Origin: Candidatus Eiseniibacteriota bacterium
Lineage (GTDB): Bacteria; Eisenbacteria; RBG-16-71-46; CAIMUX01; VGJL01
Length of the DNA: 64,000 bases
NCBI GenBank assembly: GCA_041946735.1
Contig: JBHGAY010000001.1
Coordinates: 32,001 to 96,000 of the forward strand
Direction of reading: 5' to 3'
The position numbers and the translations under genes were made by a program. Shown here piece after piece: positions 3,515 to 35,213 of the stretch. Under the pieces are notes generated by a model, which was not told the origin of the DNA, searched no databases, and saw only the letters and a program-made list of their open reading frames with translations. Every line of letters starts with the position of its first letter. Position 1 is the stretch's first letter.

Positions 3515-4273
3515 CTAGGAACGGATGCGGGAAGAGCCGCGAAGTTCAGGCGCGGCGGAGCCGCGCCAACTCTCCAGCAGCCGGGCGGCGAGAGCCGGGC
3601 CGGCCCCCGCTTCCTCGTGCTTGAAGAAGACGAAGGCCTGGTTCCATGCCTGCGTCGCGATCCGTTCGCACCACGCCTCGAGGTCCCGCTCGTCGTAGTC
3701 GGGACGGCGCAGCCGCAGGTACCCCCAGGTGGAGGTCGCGGTGAAGGGGATCTCCAGCCCCTCCTCGCCGCCGTCGACGAAGCAGAGCGAAACTCCGTGG
3801 GACGATAGCAGGTCGAGGACGTCCGGCTCGAACCAGCTCGCGTGGCGGAACTCGAACGCCACCGGAGGAGCGGGGGTCGCGCGGGTGGCGAGGTGGTCGA
3901 GGAACGACTCGAGCCGTTCGCGATCCTTCGGAAGGTTTGGCGGCAGCTGGAACAGGATGGCTCCAAGCTTTTCGCCGAGGCAGGCCGCGGTCGCGAGGAG
4001 GTAATCCGTCTCGTCCTGCGCGCCCTTCAGGCGCTTGAAGTGCGTGATGCGCCGCGACGCCTTCAGGGTGAAGCGGAAGCGGTCGGGAACCTCCTGCGCC
4101 CATGCCTCCAGCACGCTGCGGCGCGGCAGGCGGTAGAAGGTGTTGTCGATCTCGACGGCCGGGAGCCTCTCGCCGAAGTAGCGGAGCATCTTCGCCGCGG
4201 GGAGGTCGCCCGGATAGAAGCTCCCCTTCCATTCCTTGTAGCCGTAGCCGCTCGTGCCGACCCAGAGGTCCAT
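3515..4273 (-). CDS. DUF72 (YecE-like) protein
   Basis: N-terminus MDLWVGTSGY.YKEWKGSFYP, VEIDNTFYRLP, FRFTLKASRRITH, LFQLPP, AFEFRHASW, YLRLR; ATG at 4273. Confidence 0.88.
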   Translation of the reverse strand: MDLWVGTSGYGYKEWKGSFYPGDLPAAKMLRYFGERLPAVEIDNTFYRLPRRSVLEAWAQEVPDRFRFTLKASRRITHFKRLKGAQDETDYLLATAACLGEKLGAILFQLPPNLPKDRERLESFLDHLATRATPAPPVAFEFRHASWFEPDVLDLLSSHGVSLCFVDGGEEGLEIPFTATSTWGYLRLRRPDYDERDLEAWCERIATQAWNQAFVFFKHEEAGAGPALAARLLESWRGSAAPELRGSSRIRS

Positions 4274-10671: not shown

Positions 10672-12249
10672 ATGAGACTCGAGGCTCGCCTCGCCCTGAT
10701 CCTGGTCGGTGTCGTCGCACTCGCCGGCCTCGGCGCGCTCACCGCCCTGCTCGCCGCCCGCTCGCTCGGAGAGACGATGGAGGAGATCATCACCTCCAAC
10801 GTCTCCAGCGTGCGAGCCGCCGAGGAGCTGGAGATCTCCCTGCTCGAGCAGCGCGGTCTCACCTCCGCTTTCCTCCTGGACGACGGCAACGAGGCGTGGC
10901 TCCAGGAGCTCGAGACCCGCCGGGCCGAGTTCGAGAAGTGGCTCGCCCGCGCCCGCGCGGCCGCCCGTGAGCCGGAGGAGCATCGGATCCTTGCGGATCT
11001 CGGCACGACCTACCTGCGCTACGACGCGGTGCGCGACAGGGTGCTGGAGACCTACCGGAGAGGGGAGAAAGACCAGGCGCGCCGGCTGCAGCTCGGCTCC
11101 GTCAAGGAGCTGTCCGAGGCGACCTACCAGCTTTCCGAAGCGCTCATCGCGACGAACGAGCGGGCGATGGACCGGAGCGTCCAGGCGGCCCGCCGGAAGA
11201 TCGCCCGCACCACGCTTCTCGTCTCGGGATCGCTGGGCCTGACGATCCTCGGAAGCCTGGCGCTCCTCCTCGCGTTCGTGCGAGGCGTGCTCAATCCGGT
11301 CCGCCGTCTCGCTCGTGAGGCGCGGGAGGCGCGCGGCGAGGAGGCGCCTTCCCGGCTCGCGGGTCCCGAGGACGAGCTGCGCGAGGTCGGCCGCTACCTG
11401 CGCGATCTCGTCAGCGACGTGGAGGAGTCCCGCGAACAGATCGAGCGAAGCCGGGTCCATCTGGAGAGCGCCGAGAAGCTGGCGAGCGTCGGCAAGCTGG
11501 CGGCGAGCGTGGCGCACGAGATCCGCAATCCCCTGACCTCGATCCGCATGCGGCTCTACACGCTTCGCCATCAGATCGGCAGCGGTGGTAGCGGCGGAGG
11601 AGGCGGCAGCGCTGGGGGAAGTGGCGGTCGTGGCGGCGGCGGCGGGATCGATGGGGCCGGCGGAGTCGACCTCGCCGATCAAGCGGAGGACTTCGAGGTC
11701 ATCGACTCGGAACTGCGGCGGCTCGAGTCGATCGTGCACAACTTCCTCGAGTTTTCCCGTCCCCCGCAGCTCTCGCCTCGCGTCGAGCCGATCCCCCCGC
11801 TGATCGAACAGACGCTCGAGCTGATGGAGCCCTGGCTCGAGTCCCGTCGCGTCCGCGTCCACTGCGATCTCGAGACGGACCTTCCCCGCGTCTTCGCCGA
11901 CGCCGCGCAGATCCGCCAGGTCTTCGTGAACCTGATCCGCAACGCGGTCGAGGCAATGCCCGAGGGAGGGGAGCTGACCGTGACCGGTTGCGCCGCACGC
12001 AATCCGTCCGGATCGGACGGCGTCGCGCTGCGCTTCGAGGACACCGGGCCGGGGATCGCGGACGAGGCGCGGGAGCGTATCTTCGATCCGTTCTTCACGA
12101 CGAAGGCGGAGGGAACCGGCCTGGGGTTGACGATCGCCGCCTGGATCGTCGCCCGGCACGAGGGTCGCCTGGACCTCGAGGGGACCGGGCCGCGCGGAAG
12201 CCGATTCTCCCTTTGGCTGCCCTCCGCAGCCGCGCATCGGGAGGGATGA
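10672..12249 (+). CDS. Membrane sensor histidine kinase (four-helix-bundle sensor, HAMP, HisKA, HATPase)
   Basis: Two TM helices flanking a helical periplasmic domain; H-box AHEIRNPL; NLIRNAVEAM; DTGPGI, FDPFFTTK, GTGLGL. Confidence 0.92.
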   Translation: MRLEARLALILVGVVALAGLGALTALLAARSLGETMEEIITSNVSSVRAAEELEISLLEQRGLTSAFLLDDGNEAWLQELETRRAEFEKWLARARAAAREPEEHRILADLGTTYLRYDAVRDRVLETYRRGEKDQARRLQLGSVKELSEATYQLSEALIATNERAMDRSVQAARRKIARTTLLVSGSLGLTILGSLALLLAFVRGVLNPVRRLAREAREARGEEAPSRLAGPEDELREVGRYLRDLVSDVEESREQIERSRVHLESAEKLASVGKLAASVAHEIRNPLTSIRMRLYTLRHQIGSGGSGGGGGSAGGSGGRGGGGGIDGAGGVDLADQAEDFEVIDSELRRLESIVHNFLEFSRPPQLSPRVEPIPPLIEQTLELMEPWLESRRVRVHCDLETDLPRVFADAAQIRQVFVNLIRNAVEAMPEGGELTVTGCAARNPSGSDGVALRFEDTGPGIADEARERIFDPFFTTKAEGTGLGLTIAAWIVARHEGRLDLEGTGPRGSRFSLWLPSAAAHREG

Positions 12250-13781
12250 TGAGCCGTATCGTAGTCGTCGACGACGAGCCGCAGATCCTCGCCTCGTTCG
12301 CGAAGCTGCTGCGCAGCCGCGGCCACGAGGTCGAGACGTACCGGCGGGCCGAGGAGGGAATGGAGGCGATCTCGCGCGAGGTCCCCGATCTGCTCGTGAT
12401 GGACATCCGTCTGCCGGGGATGAATGGGCTCGACGCCCTTCGCCGAACGCACGAGATCCATCCGCGCCTCCCCGTGATCTTGATGACCGGCTACGGGACG
12501 ATGCAGACGGCGGTCGAGGCGACGAAGCGCGGCGCGTTCGACTATCAGCTGAAGCCGTTCGATCCGGAGAAGCTGATCGAGGCGATCGATCGCGCGCTGG
12601 CCGGAGCGCGCCTGATGCGCCGGCCGGTCGAGCTGGATCCGGTGGCGCCGCCGGAGCAGGGAGACGCGTTGATCGGCCAGTCGGCCGCGATGCAGGAGGT
12701 GTACAAGACGATCGGCCGCGTCGCTCCCACCGACGCGACGGTGCTGATCCGCGGCGAGACCGGCACCGGGAAGGAGCTGGTCGCGCGCGCGATCTACCAG
12801 CACAGCCGGCGCAGCGCGGCGCCGCTCGTCGCGGTCAACTGCGCCGCGATCCCGGAGACCCTGCTCGAGAGCGAGCTGTTCGGGCACGAGCGCGGGGCCT
12901 ACACCGGAGCGGTCGCCAGCCGCATCGGCCGCTTCGAGCAGGCGCAAGGAGGCACGCTCTTCCTCGACGAGATCGGAGAGCTGCCCTCGCTCGTGCAGGC
13001 GAAGGTGCTGCGCGTGCTCCAGGAGAGAAGCTTCGAGAGGCTCGGCGGGACGGACACCGTGCGGGTCGACGTACGGCTCCTCGCCGCCACCAACCGCGAT
13101 CTCGAGAAGGCGATCCCCCAGGGGGAGTTCCGCGAGGACCTCTACCATCGCCTCCACGTCGTCACGATCCACCTGCCGCCGCTGCGGCAGCACCGGGAGG
13201 ACATCCCGCGCCTCGCCGCCTACTTCCTCGACCGCTTCTCGCGCGAGTTGGCGGTGGAGCGGCCGATCCTCGCGCCCGAGGCGCAGGAGACGCTGCTGGC
13301 CCATCCCTGGCCGGGCAACGTCCGGGAGCTGGAGAACGCGATCCAGCGCGCCGTGATCTTCACCCGGGGCTATCCGATCCAGAAGGCGGACATCCTGCGC
13401 GCCCTCGAAGGGGCTGCAACGCCCGGTGGGCCAACGACGGGAACGGGGACGGGGACGGGGACGGGAACGGGGACGGCGGAGGATGGGGGACGAGTGGCGA
13501 GGCCGGCTGGGACTGCCGCGGCGGGATCGGGACCGGCGCAGGCGAACGCGCCCGGCGAGGAGCCGATGCGCGCCATCGTCCGCGCGCATCTCGAAGCCCA
13601 CGCAGGGAACGAGGCGCATGAGAAGCTCCTCGATCTCGTCGACCGCCTGCTCGTCGTCGAGGCGATGCGGATCGCCGGAGGCAACCAGACGCGCGCCGCG
13701 AAGCTCCTCGGGCTCTCTCGCCCAAGCCTCCAGACGCGGCTGCAGAAGCACGGCATCAGGATGGAGCCTCGCGAGGGGTAG
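12246..13781 (+). CDS. sigma54-dependent response regulator (REC-AAA+-Fis HTH, NtrC family)
   Basis: VVDDE/DIRLP receiver; GETGTGKE Walker A; ESELFGHERGAYTGA (GAFTGA variant); FLDEI; WPGNVRELEN; GNQTRAAKLLGLSR; start overlaps the kinase stop. Confidence 0.93.
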   Translation: MMSRIVVVDDEPQILASFAKLLRSRGHEVETYRRAEEGMEAISREVPDLLVMDIRLPGMNGLDALRRTHEIHPRLPVILMTGYGTMQTAVEATKRGAFDYQLKPFDPEKLIEAIDRALAGARLMRRPVELDPVAPPEQGDALIGQSAAMQEVYKTIGRVAPTDATVLIRGETGTGKELVARAIYQHSRRSAAPLVAVNCAAIPETLLESELFGHERGAYTGAVASRIGRFEQAQGGTLFLDEIGELPSLVQAKVLRVLQERSFERLGGTDTVRVDVRLLAATNRDLEKAIPQGEFREDLYHRLHVVTIHLPPLRQHREDIPRLAAYFLDRFSRELAVERPILAPEAQETLLAHPWPGNVRELENAIQRAVIFTRGYPIQKADILRALEGAATPGGPTTGTGTGTGTGTGTAEDGGRVARPAGTAAAGSGPAQANAPGEEPMRAIVRAHLEAHAGNEAHEKLLDLVDRLLVVEAMRIAGGNQTRAAKLLGLSRPSLQTRLQKHGIRMEPREG

Positions 13782-13933
13782 CGCCGGATTCCCTGCGATC
13801 CGCCGGAAACCCGGCACCCGGCACGCGCACCGGCGGAAGGTTCCGCTCAAGTCGCGCGGGCGACTTCGTCGTTCGTTCGCGAAAGCTTCGTGGCTGAAGC
13901 ATCTTGCCGTTGCTCGCCCCGCATCCGCTCCTC

Positions 13934-13949
13934 TGGCACGAGGCGTGCT
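13934..13949 (+). promoter_or_regulatory. sigma54 (-24/-12) promoter
   Basis: TGGCACGAGGCGTGCT: GG-N10-GC with perfect TGGCACG; short palindromes at about 13802-13866 are candidate activator sites. Confidence 0.65.
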
Positions 13950-13960
13950 TCTTCCGGGAC

Positions 13961-14165
13961 GTCCTTGGTCGGCAACGACCTCGTGACGGCTCGTGGAAAC
14001 GGCCACTCCCCGGGAGCAGAAGAACCGCTGTTTCCGGGGAGGCGCCGGCGGCGAAGGCGAAGGCGGGCGTCCCGATCAGCGCGCTCGGCCCTGGGTTCGC
14101 CGCCGGCGCGTTCGTTCGTATCGGCTCGGCACCGGACTCCGAGGGGGAGAGTTTCCGAGCCCCGC
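13961..14165 (+). ncRNA. Candidate sigma54-dependent structured small RNA
   Basis: Five consecutive stem-loops directly after the sigma54 motif, two with GNRA tetraloops, and G-U pairs that only work on the + strand; no RBS-supported ORF; ends approximate. Confidence 0.5.
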
Positions 14166-14196
14166 TCCCACCCGTGGTTCCCGCGACCGTGCCTGC

Positions 14197-15087
14197 CTAA
14201 TCCCCCTGCTCCCCGAGCAGCCCCCGGTGGATCGCCAGATGGCGCAACGCGAGCCGCGGGCGCCCCAGCTCCTCGTAGACCAGCGCGAGATTCATGTGCG
14301 CGTCGGCGAGATTCGGATCGAGCGTGATCGCGTGCCGGTAGTAGCGGACCGCCCGCTCGCCCCGGCCTCGGTCCTGCTCGCAAACGCCGAGATTGAACCA
14401 GGCGGTCGCGTCCTCCGGCCGGGAGCGAGCCGCCTGCCGGTAATGAGCCGCGGCCGCGGAGAGATTGCCTTCCTCGTGAAGCAACCTTCCGAGATTCAGA
14501 TGGGCGTCGGCATGGTCGGGATCGAGCTCGAGCGCGCGGCGATACGCGTCACGCGAAGCCTCCGGCTCGCAGCTCTCAAGGTCGCAGGCCAGCTCGTACC
14601 AGTCGGACGCCTCGAGGCGGCGATCCTCCGCGATCGCCTCGCGCGCGGCCCGGCGCACGAGGGGAGCGACCTCGGCCGCGATCTCGGAGACTTCGAAATC
14701 GAGGATCGTCTGCCCCGAGGCCGGATGCCAGGCGTCCCGGCCGTCGTGAACGACGAGATCCTCACCTTCCGCCGTGATGCGAACCGCGGTGAGATCGCGG
14801 CCGACCGGGAGCTGCTCGCGCAGGCGCGTGAGCGCGGCGCGGAGCCGGCGGGGCGGAACGGTCCGCGAGAGGTCGCGCGCCGTCCGCAGAAGGACGAGGT
14901 CCTGGAAGGAGAAGCGCAAGGCGCCGCGCGCGCCGCGGCGCGGCTCGAGGAGCCCGGCGCGCACGAAGGCGCGGATCTGCTGCTCGGTAAGCCCGAGCGC
15001 GGCCGCGGCCTCGCGGATTCCGTAGCCACTCGGGAAGCTGAGGCGGGCGAGATCGTCCGGACGTCCCTGGCGCTCGATCGTCGTCAT
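14197..15087 (-). CDS. MerR-type HTH + TPR protein
   Basis: YGIREAAAALGLTEQQIRAFVRAGLLEP...FSFQDLVLLR (MerR-like HTH), then about 4 TPRs (DAHLNLGRLL, AWFNLGV, DAHMNLALVY). Confidence 0.8.
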   Translation of the reverse strand: MTTIERQGRPDDLARLSFPSGYGIREAAAALGLTEQQIRAFVRAGLLEPRRGARGALRFSFQDLVLLRTARDLSRTVPPRRLRAALTRLREQLPVGRDLTAVRITAEGEDLVVHDGRDAWHPASGQTILDFEVSEIAAEVAPLVRRAAREAIAEDRRLEASDWYELACDLESCEPEASRDAYRRALELDPDHADAHLNLGRLLHEEGNLSAAAAHYRQAARSRPEDATAWFNLGVCEQDRGRGERAVRYYRHAITLDPNLADAHMNLALVYEELGRPRLALRHLAIHRGLLGEQGD

Positions 15088-15129: not shown

Positions 15130-16170
15130 TCAAGCTCCTCCGCCGGCGCCCGAGCGCCTCGCCTTCCCCTTTCCATTCGACGAGCCTCTCCCGGCGGCGC
15201 CGGTGCCCGTCTTCTTCTCGTCCGGTAGGGCGGCCGAGCGAGGCGGCCGGCGCGTCGCGGCGCCCGCGCGTCCCCGAGAAGCGGCGGCGGCCCCTTCCGC
15301 TTCGCGCTCGGCGTCCCGGCGCGGGGAGGCGCCCCTGCGCGGGGAGGCTGCGCCGCCGGTGCGCGAGGCGGATCCCTTCCCGCCGCCGGCCGCCGGCGCC
15401 TCCGCGAGGCTCGCCTTCAACGCTTCCATCAGGTCGATCACCTTCGGCGGAGGCGCCTCGCTGGAAGCGATGGTGAACTGCTGCCCCTCGATCTTCTTCT
15501 GCAGGATCTCTTGGAAGCGCTTGCGGCTCTGGTCCTCGTACCGCTCCGGATGGAACTCGTCCGAGGCGGACTGGCGCAGGAGCTGAAGGGCGAGAGCGAG
15601 CTCGGCGTCCTTCACCTCGCCGCCGTTGCCGACGGGGACCTCCGAGATCGGCCGCACCTCCTCCGCGTGACGCAGCTGCTGCATGACGAGACCGCCGTCG
15701 AGCGGCCGCACGAGGACGATGTACTCCTTACCGCGCGCCGCGTAGCGCGCGAGGCCGCCAAGCCCGGTGTCGGCCATCGCCCGCGCGAGGAGCTTGTACG
15801 CGCGATCCCCTCCCTTGTCGGGCCCGAGGTAGTACGCCCGGTCGAAGTAGACGGGATCGATCGTGTCGAGCGGCACGAACTCCTCGATCGCGATCGCCTT
15901 CGTCGCCTCCTCCTCGAGCGCCTCGATCTCCTCCTGGGAGAAAAGGACGAACTGATCCTTGGCGAACTCGTAGCCCTTCACGATCTGGTCCCGATCGACC
16001 TTCTCGTTGTCGGCCGGGCAGACGTACTGCTGTCGGATCGGCGTGCGGCACTTCGCGTGCAGCATCCGGAAGGAGATCCCCTCGCTCGACTGCGCGGTCG
16101 AGAACAGCTTGACGGGGATCGAGACGAGCCCGAAGGACACGGTAGCGGTCGCGATCGATCGGGGGGCCAT
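15130..16170 (-). CDS. ku: NHEJ Ku protein with basic low-complexity C-terminal tail
   Basis: RSIATATVSFGLVSIPVKLF, IVKGYE, IDPVYFDRAYYLGP, AYKLL, VIDLMEALKASL; AGGAGG RBS before ATG 16170. Confidence 0.93.
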   Translation of the reverse strand: MAPRSIATATVSFGLVSIPVKLFSTAQSSEGISFRMLHAKCRTPIRQQYVCPADNEKVDRDQIVKGYEFAKDQFVLFSQEEIEALEEEATKAIAIEEFVPLDTIDPVYFDRAYYLGPDKGGDRAYKLLARAMADTGLGGLARYAARGKEYIVLVRPLDGGLVMQQLRHAEEVRPISEVPVGNGGEVKDAELALALQLLRQSASDEFHPERYEDQSRKRFQEILQKKIEGQQFTIASSEAPPPKVIDLMEALKASLAEAPAAGGGKGSASRTGGAASPRRGASPRRDAEREAEGAAAASRGRAGAATRRPPRSAALPDEKKTGTGAAGRGSSNGKGKARRSGAGGGA

Positions 16171-16541
16171 GAGAGCTTCCTCCTGTCCGGAGCAACCGGT
16201 GCGGGCCTCCCGGTTCTTCTCGACGAACCGGTTCATTCTATCGACTCGGCCCGCCGCCTGAGGAGTCGCAAGTCGACGCGCGGCCGGAGGAAGGGGCGCC
16301 GGGAGCCGGTTCATGGGGCGCCGAAGCGATCGATCGATCGGGAGTGCGGCCCGTTCGAGGGCTCCGTCTGCCCCGCCTCGCTGCGGCGACGGCGGCGACG
16401 CATCGATGGAATCGGATCGAGGTCCGATCCCGTGGCGAAGCTCGAGGCTCGATCCCCGAATCGGCGCGCGCCACACGCGACGCCCCGGTTCGATGCTCGA
16501 TGCTTCGAGACTTTGGACTGCTGGCCTCGCTCGGGAAGAGC

Positions 16542-16581
16542 AGACGCGGAAAAGGAGACACAGAAAAGAGACACAGAAAAG
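16542..16581 (+). repeat. Three near-tandem 13-14 bp A-rich repeats
   Basis: AGACGCGGAAAAGG, AGACACAGAAAAG, AGACACAGAAAAG in the ku/GT2 divergent intergenic region. Confidence 0.7.
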
Positions 16582-16731
16582 CGGTGACGATCCGGGAGCC
16601 GATCGCGCTACCCTCTCCCGGGACGGTCTGGGATGGCGCAGGGGGGGATCCCGGACCGTCGCCTTTCCTTCCCGGAGAAGCCGATTGCGGGGCGCCAGCG
16701 AGATCGGAAGCATGTCTGCAGAAGTCGATCG

Positions 16732-17571
16732 ATGATTACCGAGCATGAGGGTCTCTCGGTCGTCGTGCCGGTGCACGACGAGCAGGACGCGCTCCCGGCC
16801 CTTTGTGAGAATCTGCTCGCGACGCTCGCCCCCCTCGGCCGGCCCTTCGAGATCCTCCTCGTCGACGACGCCAGCCGCGACGCAAGCCCCGAGGTGGCGC
16901 GATCCCTCTCGCGATCCGAGCCGCGTATCCGCAGCCTTCGCCTCTCGCCGCACGCCGGCCAGTCGGGCGCGCTCGCGGCCGGTTTCCGCGCCGCCCGGAT
17001 GCCGGTCATCGTCACCCTCGACGCGGATCTGCAGAACGATCCAGCCGACATCCCGCGCTTGCTCGATGCGCTGCGCGACGCGGACGCGGTCTGCGGAATC
17101 CGCGCGGAGCGGCGCGACACCTGGGTACGACGCGCCTCGAGCCGCATCGCGAACCGCATCCGAGACGGCGTGACCGGCGATCACGTGACCGACACCGGCT
17201 GCGGTTTGAAGGCGTTCCGCGCCGAGTTCCTTCGCGAGATCAAGATGTACCGCGGGCTCCACCGCTTCCTGCCGACCCTGCTGCGCCAGGAGGGGGCGCG
17301 CGTCGTCGAGATCCCCGTCGCGCATCGCCGGCGCACCTCGGGCCGCTCGAAGTACGGCATCCGCAACCGCGCGCTCCCCGCGTTGCGCGACTGCTTCGCC
17401 GTCCGCTGGATGCGCGATCGATCCTTGCGCTACGAGGTGCACGAGGATGCCCCGCCGCCACCGCCTGGATCGCCCGGACCGCCCGGGCCGGCTGGACCGG
17501 CCGGACCCGGGCAGGCAGAGGCGGCCGGCGGCGCGACGGGCGATCAGAGGAGCCGGCGCAGCCTCTCGTAA
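16732..17571 (+). CDS. GT2 polyprenol-phosphate glycosyltransferase (DPM1/ArnC-like)
   Basis: LSVVVPVHDE, LLVDDAS.D, GQSGAL.AGF, TLDADLQNDP, DTGCGLKAFR, HRFLP, R..GRSKY. Confidence 0.88.
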   Translation: MITEHEGLSVVVPVHDEQDALPALCENLLATLAPLGRPFEILLVDDASRDASPEVARSLSRSEPRIRSLRLSPHAGQSGALAAGFRAARMPVIVTLDADLQNDPADIPRLLDALRDADAVCGIRAERRDTWVRRASSRIANRIRDGVTGDHVTDTGCGLKAFRAEFLREIKMYRGLHRFLPTLLRQEGARVVEIPVAHRRRTSGRSKYGIRNRALPALRDCFAVRWMRDRSLRYEVHEDAPPPPPGSPGPPGPAGPAGPGQAEAAGGATGDQRSRRSLS

Positions 17572-27376: not shown

Positions 27377-27450
27377 TGCGCCCAGGAGGAGTCGAACCCC
27401 CAACCTTCTGATCCGTAGTCAGACACTCTATCCAATTGAGCTATGGGCGC
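27377..27450 (-). tRNA. tRNA-Arg(ACG)
   Basis: GCGCCCATAGCTCAATTGGATAGAGTGTCTGACTACGGATCAGAAGGTTGGGGGTTCGACTCCTCCTGGGCGCA; anticodon stem TCTGA/TCAGA; no encoded CCA. Confidence 0.97.
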
Positions 27451-27462
27451 ACCAACCACTGC

Positions 27463-27553
27463 TGGCGGAGAGGGGGAGATTCGAACTCCCGGTAGGCTTT
27501 TGACCTACAACACATTAGCAATGTGCCGCCTTCAGCCACTCGGCCACCTCTCC
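27463..27553 (-). tRNA. tRNA-Ser(GCT)
   Basis: GGAGAGGTGGCCGAGTGG...CACATTGCTAATGTG, long variable arm, GTTCGAATC...GCCA. Confidence 0.97.
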
Positions 27554-27580
27554 AGGAACATCCCGCCTCGCCGAGTCTCT

Positions 27581-27663
27581 CGGAGGGAGTAGGATTCGAA
27601 CCTACGGGTCTTTCGACCTGCGGTTTTCAAGACCGCCGCCTTCAACCACTCGGCCATCCCTCC
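27581..27663 (-). tRNA. tRNA-Ser(TGA)
   Basis: GGAGGGATGGCCGAGTGG...GCGGTCTTGAAAACCGC, variable arm GGTCGAAAGACC, GTTCGAATCC; -10-like TATCAT at 27672-27677. Confidence 0.96.
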
Positions 27664-35075: not shown

Positions 35076-35213
35076 ACCAAGAGGCGTGCCATTCGGAGCG
35101 AAGCGCGCTCGCCCGTCCGCATCTTATTCTGCGTATTGGACTTATGGCGCACCGTCGCGAACGCGCGCCACGCCCCCGCTCCCGGCCATCCCGTGTATGT
35201 ACGTATCGGGACA
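35076..35213 (-). promoter_or_regulatory. Putative sigma54 promoter module (-24/-12, AT-rich IHF-like block, TGT-N10-ACA UAS)
   Basis: TGGCACGCCTCTTGGT (35076-35091, -12 GC replaced by GG); AT-rich block 35121-35145; TGTACGTATCGGGACA 35198-35213. Confidence 0.55.

Follow-up and report, generated by a model that had tools for sequence, protein, structure and literature searches.

A candidate sigma-54-dependent small RNA encoded after a two-component activator gene in Candidatus Eiseniibacteriota

We lean, with moderate confidence, towards a reading in which a lineage-specific RNA of ~160 nt is transcribed in a sigma-54-dependent manner from the + strand of the DNA between an NtrC-type activator gene and its convergent neighbour in Candidatus Eiseniibacteriota bacterium. 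We favour it because a good promoter match lies in a non-coding gap, the + strand carries excess predicted structure from the predicted start onwards, a T-rich tail is found on that strand, and neither an Rfam family nor a credible small ORF was detected. From the sequence we infer that the promoter fires and that the neighbouring activator is its driver.

Results

Organisation of the locus

The locus is on contig JBHGAY010000001.1 of assembly GCA_041946735.1 (4.89 Mb in 72 contigs, 94.8% complete). Positions refer to the window, the whole 64 kb stretch of DNA that was analysed, which has a G+C content of 70%, compared to 68% for the genome. The features are:

10672..12249, + strand, sensor histidine kinase gene
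12246..13781, + strand, gene for an NtrC-type response regulator (sigma-54 enhancer-binding protein) of 511 aa
13799..13837, no strand assigned, candidate enhancer (putative activator-binding site)
13849..13881, + strand, probable terminator of the kinase-activator operon
13934..13949, + strand, sigma-54 (-24/-12) motif TGGCACGAGGCGTGCT
13960..14121, + strand, predicted small RNA of ~160 nt with four hairpins
14123..14161, - strand, fifth hairpin
14197..15087, - strand, convergent gene for a protein of 296 aa with a MerR-type HTH and then TPR repeats

The kinase contains a 4HB_MCP/TarH-type periplasmic sensor, HisKA and HATPase_c, as assigned from Pfam, the ORF list and the translation, and its stop codon overlaps the start codon of the activator gene (ATGA). 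All four domains of a sigma-54 activator are matched by Pfam in the product of the second gene: Response_reg (E 1.6e-28), Sigma54_activat (E 1.3e-73), AAA_lid_14 and the Fis-type HTH_8 (E 1.3e-8). Its translation has GAYTGA as the loop contacting sigma-54. The MerR-TPR gene was assigned from Pfam matches and codon periodicity.

A gap of 415 nt (13782-14196) separates the activator gene from the convergent gene. The original prediction had placed the promoter motif about 150 nt after a sigma-54 activator gene and in front of a convergent one; the distance from stop codon to motif is 153 nt, and the neighbour does run on the opposite strand. The median convergent gap in the genome came out at 136 nt, but the crude ORF filter used for this comparison kept only 2567 genes, making it unreliable.

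Beyond the convergent gene, a 770-aa ORF (15130-17442, - strand) is matched by Pfam only at residues 436-601, as a Ku beta-barrel, which leaves its first 435 residues without a match; it may be over-extended in this GC-rich DNA, or a fusion. Three tRNA genes are clustered at 27377-27663 on the - strand.

The gap does not encode a protein

The gap is non-coding. Codon-position G+C is flat over 13780-14170, in contrast to the genes on either side, where the third position has its usual excess. Five ORFs extend across the gap; none of them is matched by Pfam at an E-value cut-off as loose as 1. Among the ORFs of at least 10 codons after the predicted start, none has a ribosome-binding site, and their codon bias is inverted, with GC2 above or near GC3. 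A small protein was therefore rejected, and the absence of a credible small ORF in the gap supports an RNA gene. A repeat or mobile element was likewise rejected, since the stretch has no additional copies in its own genome.

The sigma-54 promoter motif

The sequence TGGCACGAGGCGTGCT is present at 13934-13949 exactly as originally reported, with the GG at 13935-13936 and the GC at 13947-13948, and places the predicted start at about 13959-13961. It differs from TGGCAC-N5-TTGCW by one mismatch, the -12 element beginning with G instead of T; GG and GC are intact, as is the T that precedes the GC. For about 2 kb beyond the motif the + strand is free of gene-like ORFs, and a consensus scan of the gap for sigma-70 promoters called none. 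The genome has one rpoN gene.

Allowing one mismatch, the window contains two matches where 0.40 are expected, and 7 of 100 dinucleotide shuffles also reach two. The other match, TGGCACGCCTCTTGGT at 35076-35091 on the - strand, has lost the GC of its -12 element; a 370-aa gene-like ORF begins 86 nt downstream of it.

The principal alternative to a small RNA gene is that the motif is a chance likeness to a sigma-54 promoter and that the hairpins simply terminate the two convergent transcription units and stabilise their 3' ends. We regard this as unlikely, though as deserving weight. It draws support from the shuffle expectation of about 0.4 matches per 64 kb, which means that some intergenic matches must be due to chance. 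The genome-wide distribution of the motif argues the other way: low-codon-periodicity windows hold 32 of the 44 matches in the 4.89 Mb genome, against 19% for random windows, so matches are enriched in non-coding DNA. For at least 19 of these 32, a gene-like ORF begins 37-140 nt downstream, and two further matches, missed by the crude filter, precede a ribosome-binding site identified by eye and a signal-peptide-like ORF. In this genome the motif is therefore a marker of genuine promoters. The position of the site directly after an activator gene, a published pattern, also speaks against chance.

A position weight matrix was trained on the 19 gene-proximal sigma-54 sites of this genome. It gives the motif a score of 16.3 bits, fourth from the bottom of the range spanned by the training sites themselves (13.0-26.5 bits), a value that just 28 sites reach when both genome strands are counted. 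The motif is among the minority (about 11-13 of the 32) that have no gene nearby.

The -12 variant seen here recurs. Intergenic TGGCAC-N5-GTGCT sites number four: C1 45934 (the present locus), C12 38275, C45 172327 and C72 6882. None of the four has a co-directional gene-like ORF within 1 kb, while for most TTGCW sites one is found within 140 nt. These sites may be due to chance or may be a set of RNA promoters. A fifth GTGCT site, C8 125714, is in coding DNA. A second orphan sigma-54-like motif, TGGCACTGCGCATGCT, with an ATGCT variant of the -12 element, was noted at C45 33038 on the + strand (locus L204, about 3539-3700). Upstream of it lies a divergent gene; downstream, a 617-aa gene converges on it, its 3' end facing the motif, and no co-directional gene-like ORF appears for about 2.1 kb. 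The 160 nt downstream of the motif fold with -98.7 kcal/mol (residual z -3.23), as extreme a fold as that at the present locus.

Fold and strand of the predicted RNA

The predicted RNA consists of four hairpins, all on the + strand:

13967-13980, + strand, hairpin 1, GGTCG-GCAA-CGACC, with an outer helix from 13961
13988-14004, + strand, hairpin 2, GGCTCGT-GGAA-ACGGCC; hairpins 1 and 2 together fold with -19.5 kcal/mol (+) and -16.9 kcal/mol (-)
14006-14041, + strand, hairpin 3, 14-bp stem (14006-14019/14028-14041) with two G-U pairs and the 8-nt loop AAGAACCG; -26.5 kcal/mol (+), -21.1 kcal/mol (-)
14042-14109, + strand, hairpin 4, perfect 14-bp base (14042-14055/14096-14109), followed by the tail GUUCGUUCGUAU; -46.3 kcal/mol (+), -44.7 kcal/mol (-)

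These four stems and a fifth had been described at the outset, and sequence and inverted-repeat checks recover all five in place. The assignment of the four to one RNA is based on the folds, the window rank, the tail and the non-coding nature of the segment.

The + strand of 13961-14120 has a folding energy of -96.2 kcal/mol and a z-score of -4.19, and none of 200 shuffled controls folds as well. After regression on G+C it ranks first of the 1597 windows of 160 nt in the 64 kb. The - strand of the same segment reaches -84.0 kcal/mol (z -3.09, rank 42 of 1597), making the + strand the more stable by 12 kcal/mol. The longer stretch 13961-14200 has a z-score of only -2.39, because the last 80 nt contribute little. 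For the 144 nt preceding the motif the value is -0.18, indicating that the excess structure starts at the predicted start.

This sharp onset right after the motif counts against a chance motif next to ordinary terminators. The significant fold of the - strand speaks for such terminators, since an inverted repeat can form its stem on either strand, and a long hairpin between two convergent genes is normally just a terminator. Long GC-rich inverted repeats are also mostly non-coding in this genome (128 of 209 are in low-periodicity windows). Perfect inverted repeats of at least 14 bp with a loop of 3-60 nt, like the base of hairpin 4, number only 49 genome-wide.

On the + strand, both 4-nt loops are of the GNRA type, compared to a genome background of 3.7% of hairpins with a 5-bp stem and a 4-nt loop, a check made after the loops had been seen. 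The proposal that the GNRA loops and G-U pairs are strand-specific and agree with the direction of the promoter is thus consistent with a + bias in both loops and stability.

The end of the predicted RNA and the fifth hairpin

The 12 nt after hairpin 4 on the + strand, GTTCGTTCGTAT, contain six T residues, while the corresponding tail on the - strand contains one. At least six T residues occur in 0.6% of random 12-mers of this genome. As only the + strand has a T-rich tail, hairpin 4 reads as a terminator for that strand, unlike a terminator of the convergent gene; this counts against the hairpins being mere 3' ends of the two converging units, and a bidirectional intrinsic terminator can be discarded on the same grounds. 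The most likely unit, judged from these features, is therefore one of four hairpins and ~160 nt, in which the 14042-14109 stem and the tail GUUCGUUCGUAU form the end.

The original prediction had included the fifth hairpin (GGCTCGG/CCGAGCC, 14123-14161) in the RNA. Its description as a structured segment is upheld for the four hairpins in 13960-14121 but not for this one, which lies past the + strand terminator and is better folded on the - strand (-18.8 kcal/mol, z -2.73) than on the + strand (-17.8 kcal/mol, z -1.46). This hairpin is probably outside the small RNA, and the mRNA of the convergent gene may include it at its 3' end.

If the promoter is real, its main role could also be exerted on the convergent MerR-TPR gene, through an antisense RNA or transcriptional interference, with the hairpins modulating read-through. 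The promoter does face the 3' end of that gene, 236 nt away. The U-tract GUUCGUUCGUAU after hairpin 4 is imperfect, so termination may be leaky, and a consensus scan of the gap called no terminator, neither at hairpin 4 nor at 13849-13881. Four stable hairpins in series and a T-rich tail specific to the + strand are, however, a better fit to a terminated, stable RNA, and we judge interference with the convergent gene to be improbable as the main role.

The word CGTTCGTTCG follows two + strand hairpins in this one gap, at 13867-13881 and 14108-14122. The core 9-mer of the tail, GTTCGTTCG, has 64 occurrences in the genome, both strands counted, and was rejected as a terminator-specific word, although both copies in the gap trail + strand hairpins.

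DNA upstream of the motif

Between the activator gene and the promoter motif, an inverted repeat, TCCGCCGG-N23-CCGGCGGA, spans 13799-13837, which corresponds to about -162 to -124 relative to the predicted start. The arrangement occurs in two places in the genome, the other being inside coding DNA. A direct repeat, CGCCGGAWWCCC, is present at 13782 and 13801. We offer the inverted repeat as a lead for the putative enhancer. The segment 13681-13840, covering the 3' end of the activator gene and the candidate enhancer, is the most stable 160-nt window on the - strand of the 64 kb when G+C is corrected for by regression (-94.8 kcal/mol, z -3.21).

A hairpin with a 7-bp stem (AAGTCGC/GCGACTT) and a GCGG loop, followed by TCGTCGTTCGTTCG, occupies 13849-13881, ahead of the sigma-54 motif. 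Its tail resembles that of hairpin 4, and on the basis of its T-rich tail it probably ends the kinase-activator operon. That the operon already has a T-tailed hairpin before the motif makes it less plausible that the hairpins after the motif are there to terminate it.

The least probable reading, and a very doubtful one, is that the segment is the long, structured 3' untranslated region with which the kinase-activator mRNA ends, that any release from it takes place by processing, and that the -24/-12 match is incidental: the segment shares its strand with the operon, the + strand tail would allow hairpin 4 to be the last operon terminator, and a comparable processing is described for crcZ of Pseudomonas putida (PMC5113210), but a T-tailed hairpin directly follows the activator gene before the motif and the promoter match is good by the standard of the genome's own sites. 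As both routes coexist for CrcZ, such processing would be compatible with the promoter.

Search for known families and homologues

At the gathering score, a covariance-model search of the window with Rfam 15 found three tRNAs only. With E up to 10, the region 13700-14300 gave only mir-598 (14.4 bits versus 69) and speF (14.1 versus 37), both on the - strand. We take Rfam 15 to include CrcZ, Pxr, NrsZ, GlmY, Qrr, 6S, SRP, tmRNA and RNase P. The segment was therefore rightly not recognised as 6S, SRP, tmRNA or RNase P in the original prediction, as it was assigned to no family at all.

BLAST of the gap against 40 relatives returned nothing credible. Three short, GC-rich matches in these genomes (32-39 nt, E 3e-4 to 1e-3) were judged to be chance, as was one match of 45 nt at 80% in the genome itself. 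A single-sequence covariance model of the predicted RNA was then applied to 34 other genomes of the order and, under stricter filters, to a sample of the phylum. It gave no credible match in the order, where the best foreign E was 0.017 per genome, and none in the 150 phylum genomes. Two of the four foreign matches in the order were full-length (E 0.017 and 0.313) and were rejected as coding-like DNA without a promoter; the remaining two (E 0.18 and 0.58) were partial. The lack of a homologue in the BLAST and covariance searches is a further point in favour of a chance motif flanked by terminators.

The proteins of the operon are similarly isolated. The best foreign matches of the activator have 45-52% identity, no better than its paralogues in the same genome (47-49%), so no orthologue is recognisable in the order. 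The kinase matches proteins of the order through its catalytic core alone, its sensor domain remaining without a match. Contigs from metagenomes and genomes reach at best about 50% identity to the kinase-activator proteins. Five Desulfobacterales-like contigs carry the pair at full length, the nearest with 33% and about 49% identity, and the DNA downstream of these pairs differs from that found here. Two other metagenomes (X2 and X3) contain a near-identical locus; among the differences listed, none is in 13782-14196 and three are in the flanks (13548, 13608 and 14200), which makes the comparison uninformative on conservation or covariation.

Activator genes were also surveyed for promoters following them. 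A sigma-54 motif within 400 nt of the activator stop codon was found at 11 of the 170 loci with at least 150 nt of downstream sequence. Four of the 11 are from this order, with the motif preceding flagellar rod genes (three) or a secreted-protein-like ORF (one); they were therefore set aside as belonging to different regulons. At L011, L021 and L026 (in relatives G028, G023 and G012, respectively), the motif is 129-178 nt past the activator and is followed by rod genes, FlgB-like by eye. This layout demonstrates that canonical sigma-54 promoters do follow activator genes in this lineage.

Discussion

Comparison with known small RNAs next to activator genes

The arrangement resembles that of NrsZ, an NtrB/NtrC-RpoN-dependent RNA of Pseudomonas aeruginosa. 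Its gene lies between ntrC and a tail-to-tail neighbour, has its own promoter of the TGGCAC-N5-TTGCW type and gives a transcript of about 140-226 nt with a row of stem-loops (PMC4253122). The likeness thus includes a gap after a two-component sigma-54 activator gene, a convergent neighbour, an own promoter and stem-loops in series. NrsZ is made of repeated, near-identical modules sharing one loop motif, is processed and is kept across pseudomonads; the four hairpins described here are mutually unlike, and the RNA was found in one genome only by the searches of relatives and phylum. The sensor for NrsZ is NtrB, while here it is a 4HB_MCP kinase, and there is no sequence or Rfam similarity between the two RNAs.

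CrcZ is about 400 nt long and sequesters Hfq/Crc via several A-rich motifs, whereas the RNA predicted here is ~160 nt, GC-rich, has a single AGAAGAAC loop and matches no Rfam family. The likeness to CrcZ and CrcY of Pseudomonas and Azotobacter, which depend on CbrA/CbrB and RpoN, is in the order of kinase, activator and sigma-54-promoted small RNA on the same strand; crcZ is directly downstream of cbrB, and in P. putida is also obtained from a processed cbrB-crcZ read-through transcript (PMC5113210). The same text places an activator site upstream of the promoter, to which the candidate site at 13799-13837 would correspond (PMC5113210).

In Myxococcus xanthus and relatives, pxr has a sigma-54 promoter in the gap after nla19 (PMC5568312). 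Like Pxr, the RNA predicted here would be a small RNA with multiple stem-loops, encoded in a high-GC genome in the gap after the gene for a sigma-54-dependent response regulator (PMC5568312). Pxr has 108 nt and three stem-loops and is kept in the Cystobacterineae; no similarity to the RNA predicted here was detected. The flanking gene is an NADH dehydrogenase gene at pxr and that of a MerR-TPR regulator here. For DVU0653 and DVU0679 of Desulfovibrio vulgaris, the listed target is a non-coding RNA downstream of the activators themselves (PMC4641369). DVU0679 has a GAYTG-type loop, where the activator described here has GAYTGA (PMC4641369). These non-coding RNAs are likened to the one predicted here by gene layout, not by sequence.

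Judged by these analogies, small RNAs with sigma-54 promoters next to activator genes are well documented, and the RNA predicted here is not of a new kind. The designation as a novel small RNA can be kept in so far as no Rfam family matches and the intrinsic features fit, but not for the type, which NrsZ, CrcZ, Pxr and the Desulfovibrio RNAs already represent.

A proposed mechanism

In the mechanism we propose for the small RNA, the kinase, sensing through its periplasmic four-helix bundle, would phosphorylate the NtrC-type activator. The latter would then bind an enhancer within 13782-13840, the candidate site being TCCGCCGG-N23-CCGGCGGA, and remodel sigma-54 RNA polymerase at 13934-13949. 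Transcription would start near 13960 and stop at the 14042-14109 hairpin with its U-rich tail, giving the four-hairpin RNA of ~160 nt. We infer both the ends of this RNA and all of its downstream action.

The RNA would most likely act post-transcriptionally, by base pairing that would involve its 5' end, the GNRA loops or the exposed 8-nt loop AAGAACCG; it might also pair with the mRNA of the convergent MerR-TPR gene, at the 3' end. Of the whole account, this mode of action is the least secure. A search of the 94.8%-complete genome found no Hfq. CsrA is encoded; however, a CsrA/RsmA-sequestering RNA of the CsrB or RsmY/Z type is unlikely, since GGA is present in one loop only (GGAA of hairpin 2), its other occurrences being within stems.

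More speculatively, and with doubt on our part, an orphan two-component system, possibly gained by horizontal transfer, may have this RNA as its only target; the RNA would then be genus-restricted and Hfq-independent, and maybe be made from one of a few RNA promoters with a GTGCT or ATGCT element.

Significance

To our knowledge, no small RNA has been characterised in the Eisenbacteria phylum. If real, the RNA described here would be the first concrete riboregulator, together with its controlling signalling system, for this uncultured and poorly known lineage. It would also be another independent case of a two-component sigma-54 activator with an adjacent small RNA as a target, perhaps its only one. 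As such it would support a repeated origin of this activator-adjacent wiring, rather than introduce a new principle.
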